In this document: one piece after another, positions 1 to 53,389 of the stretch
Layout of the letters: each line of letters starts with the position of its first letter
How positions within the stretch are numbered: position 1 is the stretch's first letter
NCBI GenBank assembly: GCA_964410135.1
Contig: CAYPFQ010000001.1
Coordinates: forward strand, 22,560-86,559
Reading direction: 5' to 3'
DNA length: 64,000 nt
Source of the DNA: an uncultured Candidatus Bathyarchaeia archaeon
Lineage (GTDB): Archaea; Thermoproteota; Bathyarchaeia; RBG-16-48-13; CAYPFQ01
Notes under the pieces: model-generated
What the model saw: the letters and a program-made list of their open reading frames with translations, nothing else
The model's database searches: none
What the model was told of the DNA's origin: nothing
Made by a program: the position numbers and the translations under genes

Positions 1-2443
1 TTGGTCCACAGGTTTTGCTTTTCCGAGTATGCCCGCCGCTTCATGTTTTGCCAGTTCTTCTCTGAGTTTTGCGATTTCCCGCTTCGCCTCTCTCAATTCC
101 ACCTCAATTCTCTGAGCAGCCTCTGGAACCTTTTCTAGATGGGTTTCATGGATTTCAGCTGCTCTTCGTAGTGCGGTTTCTCTATGCTGGACGAGTTTAA
201 TTGCAGGCACCCCCGCCGAAAATATTAGTCTTTCAACACCGTCCTGAATTCTGTCCGTGCGCATAATTTTGATTAGGCCCACCTCGCCAGTCGAACGACA
301 ATGGGTTCCTCCGCAAGCTTCGACTTCCCAGTCTTTGGTCCTAACTACTCGGATCTCTCTGCCTGGCACCACTCCACCCTGGTACAACCTAAATCCATAG
401 GCGGCTTCAGCTTTCTCTCGGGGCATCCAGGACACTTCGACAGGCATGTTCTCCATTACAATCATGTTGGCCAGGCTTTCAATTTCAGCCAGTTCATCTG
501 GAGCTATTCGCTTATAGTGTGAGATGTCAAGACGAGTGGCATCAATGCCTTTCTGCGCACCAGCTTGCCACACATGTTCTCCTAGAACCCTCCTTGCAGC
601 GCCCATTAGGATATGGGTTGCCGTGTGATGGCGCATGAGGCTGATTCGTCGAGTCCAGTCGAGTTCGCCCTCAACTTGGGCGCCTACATTTGGAGCGTTG
701 CCCTTGACTGCGTGCACGATTACATTGCCAACCTTCTGCGCATCTGTGATTTTAGCCTCTCCACTCTTCCAAGAAATGCGGCCATGATCTGCAGGCTGTC
801 CTCCGCCTTCAGGATAAAAGGCTGTTTGGTTTAGCACAAGATATTTGCCGTCTATGACATGGGAGACACGTGCCTTGAACTTGCGGGTATACGCATCTTC
901 ATAGTAAAGGGATCTAGTTGGTTTTTGGTCAGCCACCTTATCCTTTAATTTCTTCTCAAAGGATGTGACGGCAGGTTTAGGCGCAGTAACATGTCGTCTT
1001 GCCACGGTGGTGTAGAAATCATCTGGTACATTGACCTGTACATCCTCTTTGACAGCAATCTCCGAGACTAGAGTTGGCGGAATCCCGTGAGAGTCGTAGA
1101 GTTCAACAAGCTTGTTTACAGGGATGGTGTCTTCTCCTTTGGCTTTCAGATCACTGCAAATTTTTTTCACGAGCACAGTTCCACGTTCGAGAGTTCCGCG
1201 ATATTTTTCCTCCTCAATAGCTAGCACTTCTAAGATTTCGTTACGCACTCGTTTTAGGTGTGGAAAATCTGGAGACCAGAAATTAATTTGTAAATCTACT
1301 ATATCTGAGAGTCTGTTCTCGATGCCCAGCAATCTCAGTAGACGATAGGTCCTGCGGAGCACTAGCCTAGTTAGATAGCCTTCCCGTACATTTGAGGGGA
1401 CAATCCCTTCGGCAAGCATGAAGACTAGGCTTTTAGTGTGATCGAGAACTGCGAAAACGCTTTCAACTGGGGTTAGGATCTTGTGGAGCGTATCTAGATC
1501 CATGCCAATTTTTCTTGCGATTTGCTCCCGAAGTTTTTTGACATTGGCTACTTTTTCAACTCTCATGTCGCCTGAGTGCTTCGCATATTCGGATAATAGT
1601 TTTTCATCTGGCGACAGCGCGGCCATACGCATAACTTTGTCTAATGTGGATCCATATATGGCGTGAAAACAGCTTGGGGTACCTTGAGTCAGCCAAGTGT
1701 AGCGCTCTATTCCGTATCCAGTGTCGACAGTGCGGACTGGGAGTTTGATGAATTTTCCGTCTACTACTTTGTAGTTCATAAAGACAAGCGTGCAGACTTC
1801 GAAGCCTCCAATTATTCCTTCAACATCTGGTCCAGCGTTTCCGCCACCCGACCAAACACCTTCCTTGTAGGTTACGGCTTCTGATCTCACTCCCAGCTCC
1901 TTCACGACGAGTTCATGGTGGTATCGGACTGTCTGATCTTTCCAGTAGACTTCTTTCTTCGGATAGTTGAAAGCGTGATGCCCGCCCATCTCGAATATAG
2001 TGAGGTGTCTGCCGAACGTGAGCCCCACATTATCTATGTCCACAAATCTGATGCAGGGCTGGCTGATTACGAGCGGGTTGGCTGGGGGCGGAATAATTCC
2101 ATCCGTCACATAGGGCTGAAAGTCCACGATGCTGGCATCTGTGAAGTATAGGTCGTCTCTCCACCTCGACACGACTGGGTAGGGCGCGATCCGTTTATGC
2201 TTCTTTTTTTCGAAGAAGGATAAGAATAACTCTCGCATTCCTGGTATGTCATAGCGTTTTTTAGCTGGAGGATGCCCTATGAACTCATATTCTTGGCAGG
2301 GAGCTTCTCCACAAATTTCTTGATCGTGAATTTGAGTCCAATAAAATTCCCCGCATGTCTTACATTTTTTCCTAACGAATCCATGCTCATCGAAGAATGG
2401 GATGTGATACTCACTTTCAGGAAACTCTACCAAGGGCGATCCT
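1..2443 (-). CDS. alaS: alanyl-tRNA synthetase, N-terminal ~814 codons (C-terminus lies beyond window start); probable TTG start at 2441-2443
   Basis: Reverse translation near 2300-2443 gives (M)VEFPESEYHIPFFDEHGFVRKKCKTCGEFYWTQIHDQEICGEAPCQEYEFIG, the archaeal AlaRS N-terminus. The region ~300-640 gives the editing-domain motifs HTATHIL and CGGTH. It runs off the window edge, so the ORF track did not list it. Confidence 0.85.
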
Positions 2444-2639
2444 CCAACTATGACAAGCGTAGGGCTTTCAAACAGAAAAGGTTAGGGATAATTTTTAACC
2501 CTTTGCACATGCCAATATGCGCACGCTTAAGGCTTGAGCTAGAACATTAGATCTCTTAAAAAAGTGGTTAAGAAATCGGCGAGGAAGAGAAAATTTAATG
2601 CCTCTAACTTATAGAGGGCCCAAATAGAGCTGATAGGCT

Positions 2640-48392: not shown

Positions 48393-48611
48393 TTAGACAG
48401 TAGCTGCGGCTGAAGCTTCTTTCTTCTGTTCAATGCGCTTAATTCTTGCCGCATAACCTGCAATTCTGTTTCTTAGTCTTTTTGAGGAGACGGTTGCAAA
48501 TTGTTCTACCAGCTTTTTGTTGGTCTCGTAGTCGGCGGTGAATTTATCGGGATATGTTTCTACGAGTTCCCTCGCTAGCTTCTTGACTGCTTCTGGGCGT
48601 ACTCTCCCCAT
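48393..48611 (-). CDS. rps17e: 30S ribosomal protein S17e
   Basis: 72 aa. [25 protein letters not shown] matches S17e. Confidence 0.85.
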
Positions 48612-48690
48612 TCAAATGCCTCTTGATTATTGCCTCCATAAAGGTTAATAGATTAATGAAGGTTTTGTCGGCTCTTGCCAGCATTTTTAA

Positions 48691-48700
48691 GCTTTATAAT
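48691..48700 (+). promoter_or_regulatory. TATA-like box (GCTTTATAAT) ahead of the histone gene
   Basis: Located about 50-70 nt upstream of the histone start codons. Position is approximate. Confidence 0.3.
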
Positions 48701-48766
48701 GTAGAAGTTATAGAAAACCATTCAATGATTTCTATAAAATTCTAAAATTAGATGGAAGTGGTTGAG

Positions 48767-48985
48767 ATGACTTCAGAAGAGCTTCAGCTAGCGCCTATGC
48801 ACAGGATAATTAAGAAGGCTGGCGCTGAACGGGTGAGCGAGGAGGCTGCGGGCGAGTTACGTAAAGTGCTTGAAGAGGTCGGCATAAAAATCGCAAAAGA
48901 AGCTTTGGATTTTGCCACGCATGCTGGCAGAAAAACCGTTAAGGCCGAAGACATTAAGATAGCCGCTTCGAAAGTTACTAAATGA
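48767..48985 (+). CDS. archaeal histone (HMf-like, histone fold)
   Basis: [62 protein letters not shown] aligns along its length with archaeal histones. The ORF track starts 5 codons earlier, at 48752. Confidence 0.85.
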
Positions 48986-49072
48986 TAGTCTTATAGCATA
49001 ACGCTGACTAAAAATACTTATATCTATCCTCTAATTTTGATTTTTAGATGAAATTTTATCGGAGGGAGCTTC

Positions 49073-50722
49073 ATGAGTGTAGCGGTTCCAGGTGAATTGA
49101 GCGGTCAACCCATAATCATTCTAAAAGAAGGTACTGCGCGTAGACGAGGGCGAGAAGCCCAAAGAAACAATATTATGGCTGCGAAAATAATCGCTGAGGT
49201 TTTGAGGTCTACTCTTGGTCCACGTGGGATGGATAAACTGCTTGTGGACAGCCTTGGCGATGTTGTAATTACGAATGATGGCGCTACAATTCTTGACGAG
49301 ATTGATGTGCAACATCCCGCTGCAAAGATGCTTGTAGAAACAGCGAAAACCCAAGACAAAGAAGTAGGAGATGGAACTACTACTGTTGTTGTTTTGGCTG
49401 GTGAACTGTTGAAGAAAGCTGAAGAGCTTTTGGATCAGAATATTCACCCTACAACAATAGTGAGCGGATATAGGAAGGCGACTGACAAAGCCTTAGAAGT
49501 TCTATCAAAATTAGGGGTCACTACTGATATAAACGATCGTGCAACATTGAAGAAAATCGCTGTTACTTCAATGCACAGCAAGTCTATCGGGGCTGCGAAG
49601 GAACACTTCGCCGATATAGCACTTGAAGCTGTTAAGCAGGTTGCGGAGAAACGGGGTGACCACTGGATTACTGACATTGACCAGATTCAAATTGTAAAGA
49701 AAGCTGGTGAAAGCCTCATCGATACGCAGCTCATCAGAGGGATTGTTGTCGATAAGGAAGTTGTGCACTCAGAAATGCCTAAGCGAGTTGAGAAGGCAAA
49801 AATTGCACTGCTAGATTGCCCATTAGAAATTGAAAAAACCGAGTTTAGCGCAGAAATCCGAATTCGTGACCCAACTCAGATGAAAGCATTTCTCGACGAA
49901 GAGACGCATATGCTGAAAGCTATGGTTGACAAGATCAAGTCTTCAAATGCGAATGTCATCTTCTGCCAGAAGGGAATCGATGACATGGCACAGCACTTTT
50001 TAGCCAAAGAAGGAATCCTGGCTGTTAGAAGAGTGAAGAATTCTGACATGGAGAAACTTGCTAGAGCCACAGGCGCCCGGCTTGTTACAAATCTCGATGA
50101 TCTTAAACCTACTGACTTAGGTTCGGCAAACCTTGTATATGAGCGGAAGATCGGTGAAGACAAAATGGTGTTCGTTGAGGGATGCAAAGATCCCAAGTCG
50201 GTCAGCATACTCATTCGCGGCGGTCTGGAACGAATGGTAGATGAAGCGGAAAGAGCTATGCACGATGGGCTAAGCGTTGTTGCGGACGTGATTAAAAATA
50301 ACAGGATGGTGGCTGGTGGAGGCTCGATAGAGGCCGAAATAGCAAAACAATTACGTGACTACGCCCCTAAGGTCGGAGGAAGGGAACAACTCGCTATCGA
50401 AGCATTTGCCGAAGCTTTAGAGGTCATCCCCAAAACTCTGGCTGAAAATGCTGGGTTAGATCCAATCGACATAATGGTGTCTCTGAAAGCCGCTCATGAG
50501 AAGGCAAAGGGCACCTGGATGGGTGTAGGAATATTCAGTGGCAAAGTAGTTGATATGATGGAGAGTGGCGTAGTTGAACCCCTGAGCGTTAAAGAACAAG
50601 CAGTTAAGTCGGCGACGGAAGCTACCTCAATGATTATGAGGATAGACGACGTAATCGCAGCCTCGAAACCCTCTAAGAGAGAGATGCCGCCCATGCCTCC
50701 AGGTGGAATGGAAGGCTACTAG
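49073..50722 (+). CDS. ths: thermosome subunit (group II chaperonin)
   Basis: 549 aa with [17 protein letters not shown] and [16 protein letters not shown] motifs. The C-terminal tail is Met/Gly-rich. Confidence 0.95.
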
Positions 50723-51047: not shown

Positions 51048-51647
51048 TTGAGGTGGTCTAGGTTTAACAAAGTCATACTGATCACTGGGACACCTGGAAC
51101 AGGTAAGACAACTGTCTCAAGATTGCTGGCTTCTAAGCTGAATATTTTGCATGTTGATATTGGTGAGTTAGTGGCTAATGAAAATCTTGCTTCCGGCATG
51201 GATAAGGAGCGAAAAAGCTTGGTAGCTGACATTCCTAAAGTAGCTAAACGTGTAGAAGAGATTCTGCGGAAATCAAGGGGAGACATCATAGTTGATGGAC
51301 ATTATGCTGCTGATGTGGTTCCGAAAAAACTTCTTTCTTTTGCTTTTGTATTGAGGTGTGATCCTGATGAATTGAAGAAACGATTGGAGAGGGCTGGTGT
51401 AACTGGGAGAAAAAACCTGGAGAATGTAGCTGCTGAGATTTTAGATGTTTGTCTGAGCGATGCTGTAGGCGCCTATGGTACCAATAAGGTCTGCGAAATT
51501 GACACCAGCGGCAAAATTCCCAGAAGGGTAGTGGATGAAATCCTTGCTGTGGTACATGGGGAGACTGAGGCATCTGTTGGAAATGTAGATTGGTTAAAAA
51601 AATTGGAAGTAGAAGGGCGCGTTGAAGAATTTTTGGGGTGGATGTAG
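51048..51647 (+). CDS. putative adenylate kinase, Fap7/AK6 family
   Basis: 199 aa with TTG start. The P-loop ILITGTPGTGKTT and overall size match the archaeal AK6/Fap7 kinase. Confidence 0.8.
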   Translation: MRWSRFNKVILITGTPGTGKTTVSRLLASKLNILHVDIGELVANENLASGMDKERKSLVADIPKVAKRVEEILRKSRGDIIVDGHYAADVVPKKLLSFAFVLRCDPDELKKRLERAGVTGRKNLENVAAEILDVCLSDAVGAYGTNKVCEIDTSGKIPRRVVDEILAVVHGETEASVGNVDWLKKLEVEGRVEEFLGWM

Positions 51648-51842
51648 GCTCTGTATTTAATAATTGCTTGCTATAATTGTGGGCAACTTTTATTGGTAAA
51701 AAGTGGGCAAAAAACTAAGGTTTGCTCTTATTGTGGGTCAAGTTTTCATGTTATTCGAGCTAAGATTATTGCACGCGAGCGCTCTGCAAGGAGAGCTTCT
51801 CTTGTGCTTAGATCGTTGAAAAGGGCAAGAAAAGAGGGCTAA
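51648..51842 (+). CDS. zinc-ribbon reading frame (C-x2-C-x15-C-x2-C plus basic tail) directly in-frame after the TAG stop of the kinase gene; no canonical start before the first CxxC
   Basis: Translation continues ...GWM*ALYLIIACYNCGQLLLVKSGQKTKVCSYCGSSFHVIRAKIIARERSARRASLVLRSLKRARKEG*. The only in-frame ATG, GTG or TTG is a TTG lying between the two CxxC pairs. Confidence 0.35.
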   Translation, partial: ALYLIIACYNCGQLLLVKSGQKTKVCSYCGSSFHVIRAKIIARERSARRASLVLRSLKRARKEG

Positions 51843-53389
51843 GATGTGTTCTGAGCTTCATCTAGATGTGTTTGTATCAGGGTGTACCTAGTCTGCCCAG
51901 TTTTTTCATCGAGTTCTTTTTTGATTATGCCCTTCTCTGATAGCTCATTTAGAATTGGTACCGCTATTGGGTAAAACTCTGAGGTGGATACGACAGTCTT
52001 AATTTCATCATCGGTAAGAGATCCGTATTCTTTGAATAGCTGGTACAGCTTTGTTTGCATAATCAATTTTGCCATGGGCGGTTGCGAAGGTTTCTCTGCA
52101 ATTTCTATGTGGTATTCATAAAATCTTTTTTGCATTGTATTTTTCAGTTGGTCGTCAGATAACTGTGATAGGATTGAGGATTCTGTTTCTACATAGATTG
52201 GGAATGCGTAGGGGATTAGTGGCATGTTTACGATGGCTTCACCAAGTTTGAGATAGTGAAGATAACTTGCCTGTCTCTCAGTGAGCTTCATTGCTCCCTG
52301 CAGAATTTTTCGGTCATCCTCTGTCTTTATTTGGTGACAAATCCTTGTTGCAGCATTTTTCAGAATCTCATAAGAAACCTGTGTTGGAAACTGTGAGATT
52401 ATCACTAATCCTTCACCAAATTTTCTAAGCTCTGAAATCATCTTCTCTCCGATTGATGGCGGGTCTTCAGGGCGTCTGGCTGGGATTATATTGCGGGCTT
52501 CTTCGATTATTGTCACATGTTGGAGTTTAGAAAATTTCTCTTTCGTACGGTAATCATATAGGAGCTTAAGAAAGATTGAAGTGAAAATTTTTCTAATTTC
52601 CTGTTCCTTAAAGTGTCCCAGTTCTACAGACACTATGTCACTTAGAATATCTTCAATTGGGATTGTTGTTTGCCCGTTCAATGCTTTACCTGCCTGTCCC
52701 TCTGTTAGTGGTTTCAGCCTCCTAAGCAGGGCCAATTTGGTTTCATTGTCGTAGGCTGAGCGTATCGGAGCGCGTTCTATCTCCTGAACGATATCTGAGA
52801 CTATAGGTGGCAGCGATGGTTTCTCGCTAAAATAGCCGCATCTTCTATATGTACTCCGCAGTGCTTCCCTAAACATGTACCCTTGCGGCGGTGTGAAGTT
52901 GAATATATCCGTAAAAATATCTGTCACGAGACTCATGTGTTCGCTCAGATCTCCGGAAAGCGAGGGATCCAACGGGTTCACAGTTAATGGTGCTACATCT
53001 TTTCCAGGCGTGAAAACTAACCCATTTTTATGAGATACTATATTCCTGTACTCATTGTGCCAATCAATCACTAATACCTTTATTCCGAGTTCCACAAGTC
53101 TCGATAGAATCACACTGGCAGTTGTTGATTTTCCCGATCCGGTCATTCCGAAGATCGCGATGTGCGTATTCAAGTCTTCGAGACTTAGATGCACCCCGTA
53201 GAGATTGTTCCCATGTTTCTTAACCCAGCCTAAAAATGGACCGTCCCTTCGCACTTCACTTGGTCTTGGGAGATTAAAATAAGGTTCGACTACAAGATCG
53301 ACGGTCGTAGGTGTTGGCATGATAAAATTAGTCAGGGTAACAATTTCAGGTGCGATTAATGTTGAGGTTGAGGAACTGGAAAAGGGCAT
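51839..53389 (-). CDS. DUF87 ATPase (HerA/FtsK/VirB4-like) with C-terminal wHTH-like segment
   Basis: 516 aa. Walker A is FGMTGSGKST. The DWHNEY motif is typical of HerA/VirB4-type ATPases. It is the last gene of the operon. Confidence 0.7.
   Translation of the reverse strand: MPFSSSSTSTLIAPEIVTLTNFIMPTPTTVDLVVEPYFNLPRPSEVRRDGPFLGWVKKHGNNLYGVHLSLEDLNTHIAIFGMTGSGKSTTASVILSRLVELGIKVLVIDWHNEYRNIVSHKNGLVFTPGKDVAPLTVNPLDPSLSGDLSEHMSLVTDIFTDIFNFTPPQGYMFREALRSTYRRCGYFSEKPSLPPIVSDIVQEIERAPIRSAYDNETKLALLRRLKPLTEGQAGKALNGQTTIPIEDILSDIVSVELGHFKEQEIRKIFTSIFLKLLYDYRTKEKFSKLQHVTIIEEARNIIPARRPEDPPSIGEKMISELRKFGEGLVIISQFPTQVSYEILKNAATRICHQIKTEDDRKILQGAMKLTERQASYLHYLKLGEAIVNMPLIPYAFPIYVETESSILSQLSDDQLKNTMQKRFYEYHIEIAEKPSQPPMAKLIMQTKLYQLFKEYGSLTDDEIKTVVSTSEFYPIAVPILNELSEKGIIKKELDEKTGQTRYTLIQTHLDEAQNTS

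Follow-up and report, generated by a model that had tools for sequence, protein, structure and literature searches.

The locus described here raises the question of how an open reading frame should be read when it lies directly behind, and in frame with, the stop codon of a kinase gene and has no conventional start codon ahead of its first cysteine pair. The window, which is the whole stretch of DNA analysed (64,000 nt from an uncultured Candidatus Bathyarchaeia archaeon), carries on its plus strand a gene for a Fap7/AK6-type kinase (51048–51647), which comprises 199 codons when counted from the first TTG, its putative start, and ends with ATG-TAG. Behind this TAG the frame remains open for 64 codons (51648–51839) up to a TAA at 51840–51842 and encodes ALYLIIACYNCGQ...KRARKEG, with CxxC pairs at residues 8–11 and 26–29 of this 64-residue string. 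In these respects the locus was found to be as a preliminary description had presented it, and the same holds for the sole in-frame ATG, GTG or TTG, a TTG situated between the two CxxC pairs. Four readings had been left side by side in that description, namely read-through of the TAG to give a fusion protein, initiation at an ATA or ATT codon, a sequencing error at the stop and a degenerate gene. The explanation preferred here, held as a whole with modest confidence, is that the frame represents a separate gene of the DUF1922 family which has CTG as its start codon, is most likely still made and is coupled to the kinase gene.

The assignment of the upstream gene to the Fap7/AK6 kinases was upheld. 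Its product scored 86.8 bits against Pfam AAA_18 and 127 bits against NCBIfam PRK03839, the latter being under the equivalog cut-off of 152. The closest solved relatives were the structures of P. abyssi Fap7 (4CVN/4CW7, E=2.8e-22), with human AK6 (1RKB/3IIJ/5JZV) also matching at approximately 2e-21, and the protein has the P-loop NMP-kinase fold. The TAG at 51645–51647 (plus strand) is a genuine stop of this gene. The kinase reading frame ends in ...EEFLGWM immediately before it, the nearest kinase relative (P0002) likewise ends in EFLGWM, and in the alignment the C-termini of all relatives fall no more than two residues from the end of the window's kinase. TAG also closes 18 of the 63 long ORFs in the window and is a common, ordinary stop codon in this genome. 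A pyrrolysine-like recoding of TAG was considered and rejected on account of this frequency.

The frame behind the stop was matched to the Pfam family DUF1922 (PF09082) with 38.5 bits (E=1.3e-9) against a curated gathering cut-off of 30, a match far beyond chance. The gene is placed at 51651–51842 on the plus strand, with 63 codons and a TAA encoding LYLIIACYNCGQ...KRARKEG, and residues 3–58 of the protein correspond to positions 2–55 of the 56 in the family model. The first zinc knuckle, Cys7-x2-Cys10 (51669–51680, plus strand), occupies columns that are invariant in an alignment of 20 family sequences, while the second, Cys25-x2-Cys28 (51723–51734, plus strand), has an invariant C28 and a C25 conserved to at least 90%. 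By analogy with the family, the two knuckles putatively hold one zinc ion. The Arg/Lys-rich tail that had been reported for this frame corresponds to a C-terminal helix of residues 46–62 (51786–51836, plus strand; DSSP on the predicted model), in which a motif A49...K57 is conserved in the family alignment.

An AlphaFold (AF2) model of the zinc-ribbon protein (pLDDT 95.1) predicted five short beta-strands, of which beta1 starts at residue 2, together with the two CxxC knuckles and the basic C-terminal helix. Its best PDB match with Foldseek was 1GH9 (probability 0.99, TM 0.61, with an E of only 0.09, a value in line with a query of 63 residues), an entry which the DUF1922 family profile matches at E=2e-12. 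This entry, MTH1184 of Methanothermobacter thermautotrophicus and the solved member of DUF1922, resembles the window protein in its length, its four-Cys zinc-ribbon core, the beta-strand right after Met1, the C-terminal helix and its archaeal distribution. It differs in having a CxC where the window protein has CxxC knuckles, and the CTG start codon is a further point on which the window gene departs from it. A structure for DUF1922 was solved in 2000, but to our knowledge the family has no known function, and membership therefore provides no mechanism; no papers on DUF1922 or MTH1184 were found in the literature searched. After 1GH9, the best solved fold neighbour was eS27, a zinc ribbon of the small ribosomal subunit (TM of approximately 0.54, rmsd 2.2–2.6 Å), which is of similar size and has a CxxC-x14-15-CxxC ribbon but is without the basic C-terminal helix of the window protein. 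Homology to eS27, which these fold matches had brought into consideration, was rejected at the sequence level, with an hhalign probability of 12% and hmmsearch E-values of 0.06–0.7; small zinc ribbons generically resemble one another.

A genome scan with a clade alignment located DUF1922 loci in Bathyarchaeia and in other archaeal MAGs. The DUF1922 relatives stand alone, nearly all of the 76 being 61–109 aa in length (63 codons for the window ORF), and the kinase relatives are all of 162–225 aa. No fused kinase-zinc-ribbon protein was present among the 888 kinase relatives or the 76 DUF1922 relatives, and what the related genomes hold is a separate small gene with a TTG, ATG or GTG start. Furthermore, the phase of the zinc-ribbon gene against the kinase is +1 in one related locus (L005) and +2 in another (L010), with two stops lying between the kinase and the zinc-ribbon frame in L006, L009 and L029. 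The in-frame placement in the window is a coincidence arising from 1-nt indels in a short spacer.

Read-through of the TAG would yield a Fap7-zinc-ribbon fusion, perhaps one newly evolved here after the gene had lost its own start. Such a fusion can draw on the two frames coinciding in this lineage only, on there being just two codons between them, on the zinc-ribbon gene having no canonical start of its own and on the kinase and DUF1922 genes being conserved neighbours, which makes a physical association of the proteins plausible. However, two frames coincide by chance in one case out of three, none of the near relatives has the same frame relation, fused homologues were absent from both sets of relatives, TAG is a frequent stop and the kinase ends at a C-terminus typical of its family, all of which make read-through highly improbable. 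We also know of no read-through-promoting context or structure for this group. A frame that stays open past a stop codon does not by itself imply read-through, and this one is almost certainly a separate small archaeal gene of the DUF1922 family whose start position is occupied by CTG.

This CTG (51651–51653, plus strand), a near-cognate start, is the second codon after the kinase TAG and is proposed as the initiation codon. Its counterpart is Met1 in 1GH9 and in 9 of the 15 database family members, and in the alignment Met1 of the family N-terminus, M-Y-[LIV]-[IV]-[IV]-x-C, falls on it. The product initiated there is predicted to begin with (M/L)YLIIACYNCGQLLLVK. At the same codon TTG is found in L005, whose kinase is 84% identical to that of the window, and in L006, L009/L028, L029, L038 and L011, while more distant relatives have ATG (L034/35/51/61) or GTG (L024/36/39/53). 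It follows that the ancestral TTG start changed to CTG in this lineage, which is a rare switch. Among more than 55 DUF1922 loci examined, the window-type locus alone has no canonical start before the first CxxC. Within the 64-kb window, no other gene without an early canonical start was convincing or comparable, so that this is not a habit of the genome as a whole.

CTG, ATT, ATA and ATC are all allowed as starts in translation table 11, and ATT is the start of E. coli infC. The locus resembles such rare non-canonical prokaryotic starts in having a near-cognate codon where its orthologues have a canonical one; it differs in that the use of CTG is here a proposal drawn from the sequence, and no natural CUG start in archaea was found documented in the searchable literature. 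Archaeal starts are documented as AUG, GUG and UUG (PMC4705826, PMC7531240). Switches from UUG to CUG have been recorded in prokaryotes but are rare, with one among 2,468 ancestral UUG starts, and switches to CUG are approximately 40-fold rarer than those to AUG or GUG (PMC5622118), from which it follows that CUG is strongly selected against and is a poor start.

Initiation at the ATA or ATT codons, as had been suggested, is retained with low weight, the CTG at the homologous start position being the better candidate. A start at ATA (51660) or ATT (51663) would give a product three to four residues shorter, with both CxxC pairs kept and an N-terminal Met on IACYNCGQLLLVK. Both codons are near-cognate and precede Cys7, and an ATT start has measurable activity in E. 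coli, at approximately 0.3% of that of ATG (as cited in PMC10666635). However, the residues they specify make up the conserved hydrophobic core of strand beta1 (L-I-I), and the presence of these codons in relatives with a TTG start means that nothing marks them as starts. They also lie 18–21 nt from the Shine-Dalgarno-like motif described below and 12–15 nt from the kinase stop, CTG being better placed on both counts, and no family member protein begins there, so that we regard this as very unlikely. Less probable still is a start at the TTG at 51693–51695 (plus strand), for which it can be said that it is the only canonical start codon in the frame. This codon (Leu15) lies inside the domain, between the knuckles, and the 49-residue product would be without the first CxxC, which removes strands beta1 and beta2 and half of a zinc site that is invariant in the family. 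Its equivalent in relatives is an internal Leu, no Shine-Dalgarno-like motif lies ahead of it and no gene caller reports its product.

An error in sequencing or assembly, affecting either the stop or the start codon, has nothing in its favour beyond the oddity of the locus itself. A 271-nt stretch is 100% identical in three independently assembled sequences (L001–L003; ENA ERZ781360, ENA ERZ27245483 and Logan SRR5215464) and a further one, L004 (Logan SRR5215466), matches at 100% as well, all four assemblies being from other samples. With identical DNA in four other assemblies the suggested error at the stop was discarded, its probability being negligible. It had also been held that a normally initiated gene in relatives would imply a local sequence error. 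Such a gene is indeed what the relatives have, but the error does not follow, because the CTG is reproducible. All CTG-bearing assemblies represent one strain population, with 99.5–100% DNA identity.

Conservation of the frame downstream of the kinase was evident, as it is intact and conserved in relatives. Comparison of the window with L005 gave a dN/dS of 0.205, with 12 synonymous and 10 non-synonymous changes against a neutral expectation of approximately 1:3.4. On the window's own branch there were approximately five synonymous and three non-synonymous changes (polarised; low power). The zinc-ribbon frame is under purifying selection, a signal that may predate or postdate the change from TTG to CTG. 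The notion of a degenerate gene thus fared unevenly, since 63 intact codons and this level of constraint reveal neither disabling mutations nor relaxed selection, while loss of the start codon stays as the main rival to a translated gene. In this rival the change from TTG to CTG silenced the gene, or nearly so, and left a young pseudogene without disabling mutations as yet. Although the near-cognate CTG still occupies the start position, no ATG, GTG or TTG precedes Cys7, a condition unique among the more than 55 DUF1922 loci, which speaks for silencing, as do the poor quality of CUG as a start (PMC5622118) and the restriction of documented archaeal starts to three other codons (PMC4705826, PMC7531240). 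The CTG contigs moreover represent a single strain population, and the change may thus be very recent; an inactivation of this kind would look the same, because the selection is undated relative to the start change and all CTG assemblies come from that one population.

On the other side, the 63 codons are without frameshift or stop, and the substitutions on the window's own branch lean towards synonymous ones, at approximately 5:3 where neutrality would give approximately 1:3.4. The gene is otherwise kept beside Fap7 across the Bathyarchaeia, which would make outright loss unusual. Several samples yielded the same sequence, and a start only 3 nt beyond the kinase stop is favourable for reinitiation. 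Silencing is considered possible but distinctly the less probable outcome, and we infer that the zinc-ribbon protein is, rather probably, still translated from the CTG.

Translation from the CTG may be aided by the kinase gene. The stop-to-start distance between the kinase and zinc-ribbon genes is +3 nt in the window and lies between −4 and +9 nt in the clade as a whole, with values in relatives of +4, +9, +9 and +8 (or a GTGA overlap). Distances of −8 to +10 nt are treated as predictive of termination-reinitiation in both archaea and bacteria (PMC10666635), and the two co-directional genes of the window lie within this range. Translationally coupled pairs are also enriched for interacting proteins (PMC6728339, PMC10666635; Huber et al. 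2019, 2023). The arrangement is like that of known coupled pairs in the direction and proximity of the genes, and in the downstream initiation region sitting inside the upstream gene. The classic cases differ in that they overlap (ATGA/TGATG) and have canonical starts, whereas the likeness here is one of spacing and the start is a CUG. This spacing suggests that translation of the zinc-ribbon gene is coupled to that of the kinase.

A Shine-Dalgarno-like stretch, GGGGTGG (51635–51641, plus strand), ends 9 nt before the CTG, and GGTG or GGAGG motifs commonly lie 8–14 nt ahead of the starts of genes in the window. This argument is weak, because the stretch also encodes the Gly-Trp of the kinase, its distance to the CTG exceeds the typical one by approximately 3 nt and conservation of the motif does not extend to L009 and L029. 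Another upstream motif, AAGCYTTTCGS, which precedes stand-alone DUF1922 genes in other lineages, was absent from the window and the clade, a further point in favour of coupling. In the mechanism proposed, the zinc-ribbon gene is presumably on the same transcript as the kinase gene, and initiation on the CTG with initiator tRNA would take place at reduced efficiency. Ribosomes fresh from termination at the kinase stop, 3 nt upstream, would assist this initiation, and the GGGGTGG stretch would perhaps also help.

The Fap7-(Mrr-like)-DUF1922 neighbourhood is conserved across the Bathyarchaeia. This conserved neighbourhood suggests that the function of DUF1922 is linked to Fap7 and to small-subunit ribosome maturation or RNA metabolism; we know of no earlier functional lead for the family, the Fap7 neighbourhood being the first. 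A more specific proposal, that DUF1922 is a dedicated partner of Fap7 in small-subunit ribosome maturation in Bathyarchaeia, produced in step with the kinase through termination-reinitiation and with a coupling strong enough to allow CUG reinitiation in this lineage, is speculative and on present evidence improbable. If true, it would represent a natural archaeal case in which initiation on CUG requires a ribosome terminating just upstream. More generally, should the CTG really serve as a start, this would be an uncommon natural instance of near-cognate initiation in an archaeon, and probably a coupling-dependent one.

It should also be noted that no gene finder calls the zinc-ribbon gene, because its ancestral TTG start became CTG. 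The 64-aa frame gave no match in a word-indexed protein search and a protein database look-up gave no exact record of the 49-aa product started at TTG, the gene being simply left uncalled in public annotations. Even where the start is a TTG, gene finders overlooked this conserved small archaeal gene in all assemblies examined. Its ORF exactly occupies the gap between the kinase gene and a convergent gene for a HerA-like ATPase (DUF87; 51839–53389, minus strand; 80.5 bits against Pfam DUF87), the 3' end of which overlaps the zinc-ribbon stop by 4 nt. Elsewhere in the window, positions 1–2600 had been suspected to be non-coding, and Rfam and repeat searches of this region were empty. The suspicion was rejected, as the region contains a long minus-strand ORF that runs off the left edge of the window.

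Directly behind the Fap7/AK6-type kinase gene (51048..51647, forward strand, 199 codons), which ends in ...EEFLGWM with a TAG at 51645-47, the same frame stays open for a further 64 codons (51648..51839, forward strand, closed by a TAA at 51840-42) and encodes ALYLIIACYNCGQLLLVKSGQKTKVCSYCGSSFHVIRAKIIARERSARRASLVLRSLKRARKEG. Its sole in-frame ATG, GTG or TTG is a TTG at 51693, between both CxxC pairs. These features agree with the preliminary description, as does the identity of the upstream gene, the best solved relatives of which were Fap7 of Pyrococcus abyssi (4CVN/4CW7, E=2.8e-22) and human AK6; absent from that description was a CTG (51651-53), the second codon past the kinase TAG. The frame is a real, ordinary small gene that had gone unannotated; it belongs to a known family, DUF1922, and carries a rare CTG at the start position. 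It scored 38.5 bits against the Pfam model (PF09082, curated cut-off 30 bits), covering model positions 2-55 of 56, and matched MTH1184, the only solved member of the family (PDB 1GH9), both directly and via the family profile at E=2e-12. In an exhaustive HMMER comparison against 1.84 billion representative proteins, 76 relatives came up, almost all of them standalone and 61-109 residues long.

An AlphaFold model of the protein (window 51651-51839), built from 24 family sequences, was confident (mean pLDDT 95.1), with five strands (residues 2-6, 13-17, 22-24, 31-33, 38-43) followed by a helix (46-62). The best fold match in the PDB was 1GH9 (probability 0.99, TM 0.61), followed among solved structures by small-subunit ribosomal proteins eS27 (7zhg_W, 6skf_Ax and others) at TM ~0.54. 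Homology to eS27 was rejected, as the profile comparison gave 12% and sequence-level support was lacking; this likeness is treated as a generic zinc-ribbon resemblance.

The family N-terminus reads M-Y-[LIFV]-[IV]-[IV]-x-C, and the CTG aligns with Met1 in nine of 15 database members and in 1GH9, with strand beta1 of the model starting one residue past the CTG-encoded position. Initiation at an ATA or ATT codon, as had been proposed earlier, is considered very improbable, and initiation at the internal TTG even more so. Relatives were gathered via the kinase, by running the zinc-ribbon alignment against reference genomes and by a metagenome scan. The reference-genome matches were nearly all Bathyarchaeia/Thermoproteota MAGs, which places the window in a Bathyarchaeia genome. 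The Met1 position is occupied by TTG in L005 (kinase 84% identical), L006, L009/L028, L029, L038 and L011, by ATG in L034, L035, L051 and L061, and by GTG in L024, L036, L039 and L053. Most other loci have an ATG 1-3 codons upstream, with N-terminal extensions from more distant starts in L030/L031/L033 (TTG 45 codons upstream) and L037 (ATG 13 codons upstream). CTG was found in the strain of the window and in L010, which also has in-frame GTGs two and four codons upstream; the window is the only locus of more than 55 examined in which no canonical start precedes the first CxxC. The codons of the relatives show that the CTG is derived, by a TTG-to-CTG change.

The preliminary description had also raised read-through of the TAG, giving a kinase-zinc-ribbon fusion, and a sequencing error at the stop. 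Read-through is regarded as refuted and is given hardly any credence. The kinase C-terminus is that of the whole family (consensus ...GRLxEFLxxx, with EFLGWM also in the nearest relative), kinase length is 162-225 aa in all of the best 120 of 888 relatives, and a kinase fusion was seen in none of the 76 DUF1922 relatives. In related genomes the small gene is separate and normally started. TAG ends 18 of the 63 long ORFs in the window (TAA 26, TGA 19) and is therefore an ordinary stop here. Nor is the phase relative to the kinase conserved, being +1 in L005 and +2 in L010, while in L006, L009 and L029 the zinc-ribbon gene shares the kinase phase, with two stops (TAA/TGA ATG TGA) in between; the spacer of 7-10 nt shows 1-nt indels in the junction alignment, and that both genes share a frame in the window is a one-in-three coincidence. 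A sequencing or assembly error is practically negligible, as 271 nt across the junction are identical in contigs from ENA ERZ781360, ENA ERZ27245483 and Logan SRR5215464 and the same junction is present in L004 (Logan SRR5215466). These CTG-bearing assemblies represent one strain population (99.5-100% DNA identity); they vouch for the sequence without adding evolutionary depth.

It should also be noted that an invariant ATGT(G/A)(A/G) lies at window 51639-51647 and at the junctions of L005, L006, L009, L029 and L010. In the latter four it forms an 'ATG-stop' mini-ORF located past the kinase stop and ahead of the zinc-ribbon start, whereas in the window and L005 the former kinase stop (TGA/TAA) has become TGG, the kinase having gained Trp-Met and now ending at ATG-TAG. 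The window and L004 differ at five of 5600 nt, all within 14 nt (51391-51404), changing kinase codons 115-119 from RAGVT to KVDAT; this cluster, in a variable loop of the kinase, resembles the outcome of a short recombination event or of one mutation affecting several nucleotides.

A degenerate gene, the remaining earlier proposal, is not supported in its simple form, as the frame is intact and constrained, but recent silencing is retained as a rival. Pairwise dN/dS was 0.15-0.42 across the clade and 0.205 against L005 (12 synonymous and 10 non-synonymous differences, neutral expectation ~1:3.4). When polarised with outgroups, the window's own branch carries ~5 synonymous and ~3 non-synonymous changes, a pattern which indicates constraint for most of that branch. 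Recent silencing would leave the same pattern. Continued translation from the CTG is the somewhat favoured reading: the codon is one base away from the ancestral TTG and 3 nt past the kinase stop, and stop-to-start spacing in the relatives stays within -4 to +9 nt, the range for termination-reinitiation coupling in Haloferax and E. coli being -8 to +10 nt (PMC10666635). A Shine-Dalgarno-like GGGGTGG ending 9 nt upstream of the CTG counts as weak evidence: it doubles as kinase coding sequence, its distance from the CTG exceeds that of typical Shine-Dalgarno sites in the window by ~3 nt, and L009/L029 do not conserve it. Against translation, documented archaeal starts are AUG/GUG/UUG (PMC4705826, PMC7531240), and of 2,468 ancestral UUG starts one changed to CUG, compared with 43 to AUG and 35 to GUG (PMC5622118); such switches are very rare and CUG is therefore a poor start. 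The other window genes were checked for the same peculiarity and none showed it. Silencing is a credible though distinctly less probable explanation than continued translation.

In lineages where the kinase and DUF1922 genes are not adjacent, a conserved motif, AAGCYTTTCGS (with AAAGCCTTTCGGAAG as a longer form), is found 25-40 nt upstream of the latter, exactly once per locus in 15 loci (for example L016 2465-2475, L034 1041-1051, L038 1472-1482 and L046-L050 ~1464-1474), and is probably that gene's own promoter or leader there. The motif was absent from the window and its clade, where the gene abuts the kinase, which fits expression from the kinase transcript.

We know of no function for DUF1922, and a literature search found no papers on it. 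In the modelled protein, the zinc ribbon and basic C-terminal helix suggest that it may bind nucleic acid. Among the 51 loci retrieved by the zinc-ribbon sequence alone (L012-L062), a Fap7-like kinase lies upstream on the same strand in 24, the flank being too short to judge in most of the others; Mrr-like (21), TtuA-like (23) and Lsm (7) proteins are also neighbours. The usual order is Fap7 (+), a small Mrr_cat protein (-), and DUF1922 (+), followed by either a TtuA-like tRNA thiolase (-) or an Lsm/Lsm_C protein (+). As far as we are aware, this conserved Fap7 neighbourhood is the first functional lead for the family; that the window encodes a Fap7 partner protein made by coupled CUG initiation is a speculative and rather unlikely possibility.

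Gene callers leave the DUF1922 gene uncalled in every public assembly examined (approximate ends: L005 2028-2219, L006 3122-3334, L009 3077-3271, L010 728-940, L011 3506-3700), TTG-started cases included, and the small gene is a systematic annotation gap in Bathyarchaeia. Elsewhere in the window, the apparent 2.6-kb gene-free stretch at 1-2600 (-), in which Rfam and repeat searches gave no matches, is an ordinary open reading frame, at least 827 codons long, that extends past the left edge. Upstream of the kinase (48393-50722) lie genes for ribosomal protein S17e (-), a histone (+) and a thermosome subunit (+), a typical archaeal housekeeping context with the same order in L004, L006 and L009; in L005 an IS605 OrfB/TnpB-type gene (Cas12f1-like_TNB, 301-1383) is directly upstream of the kinase, in the place of the thermosome gene.
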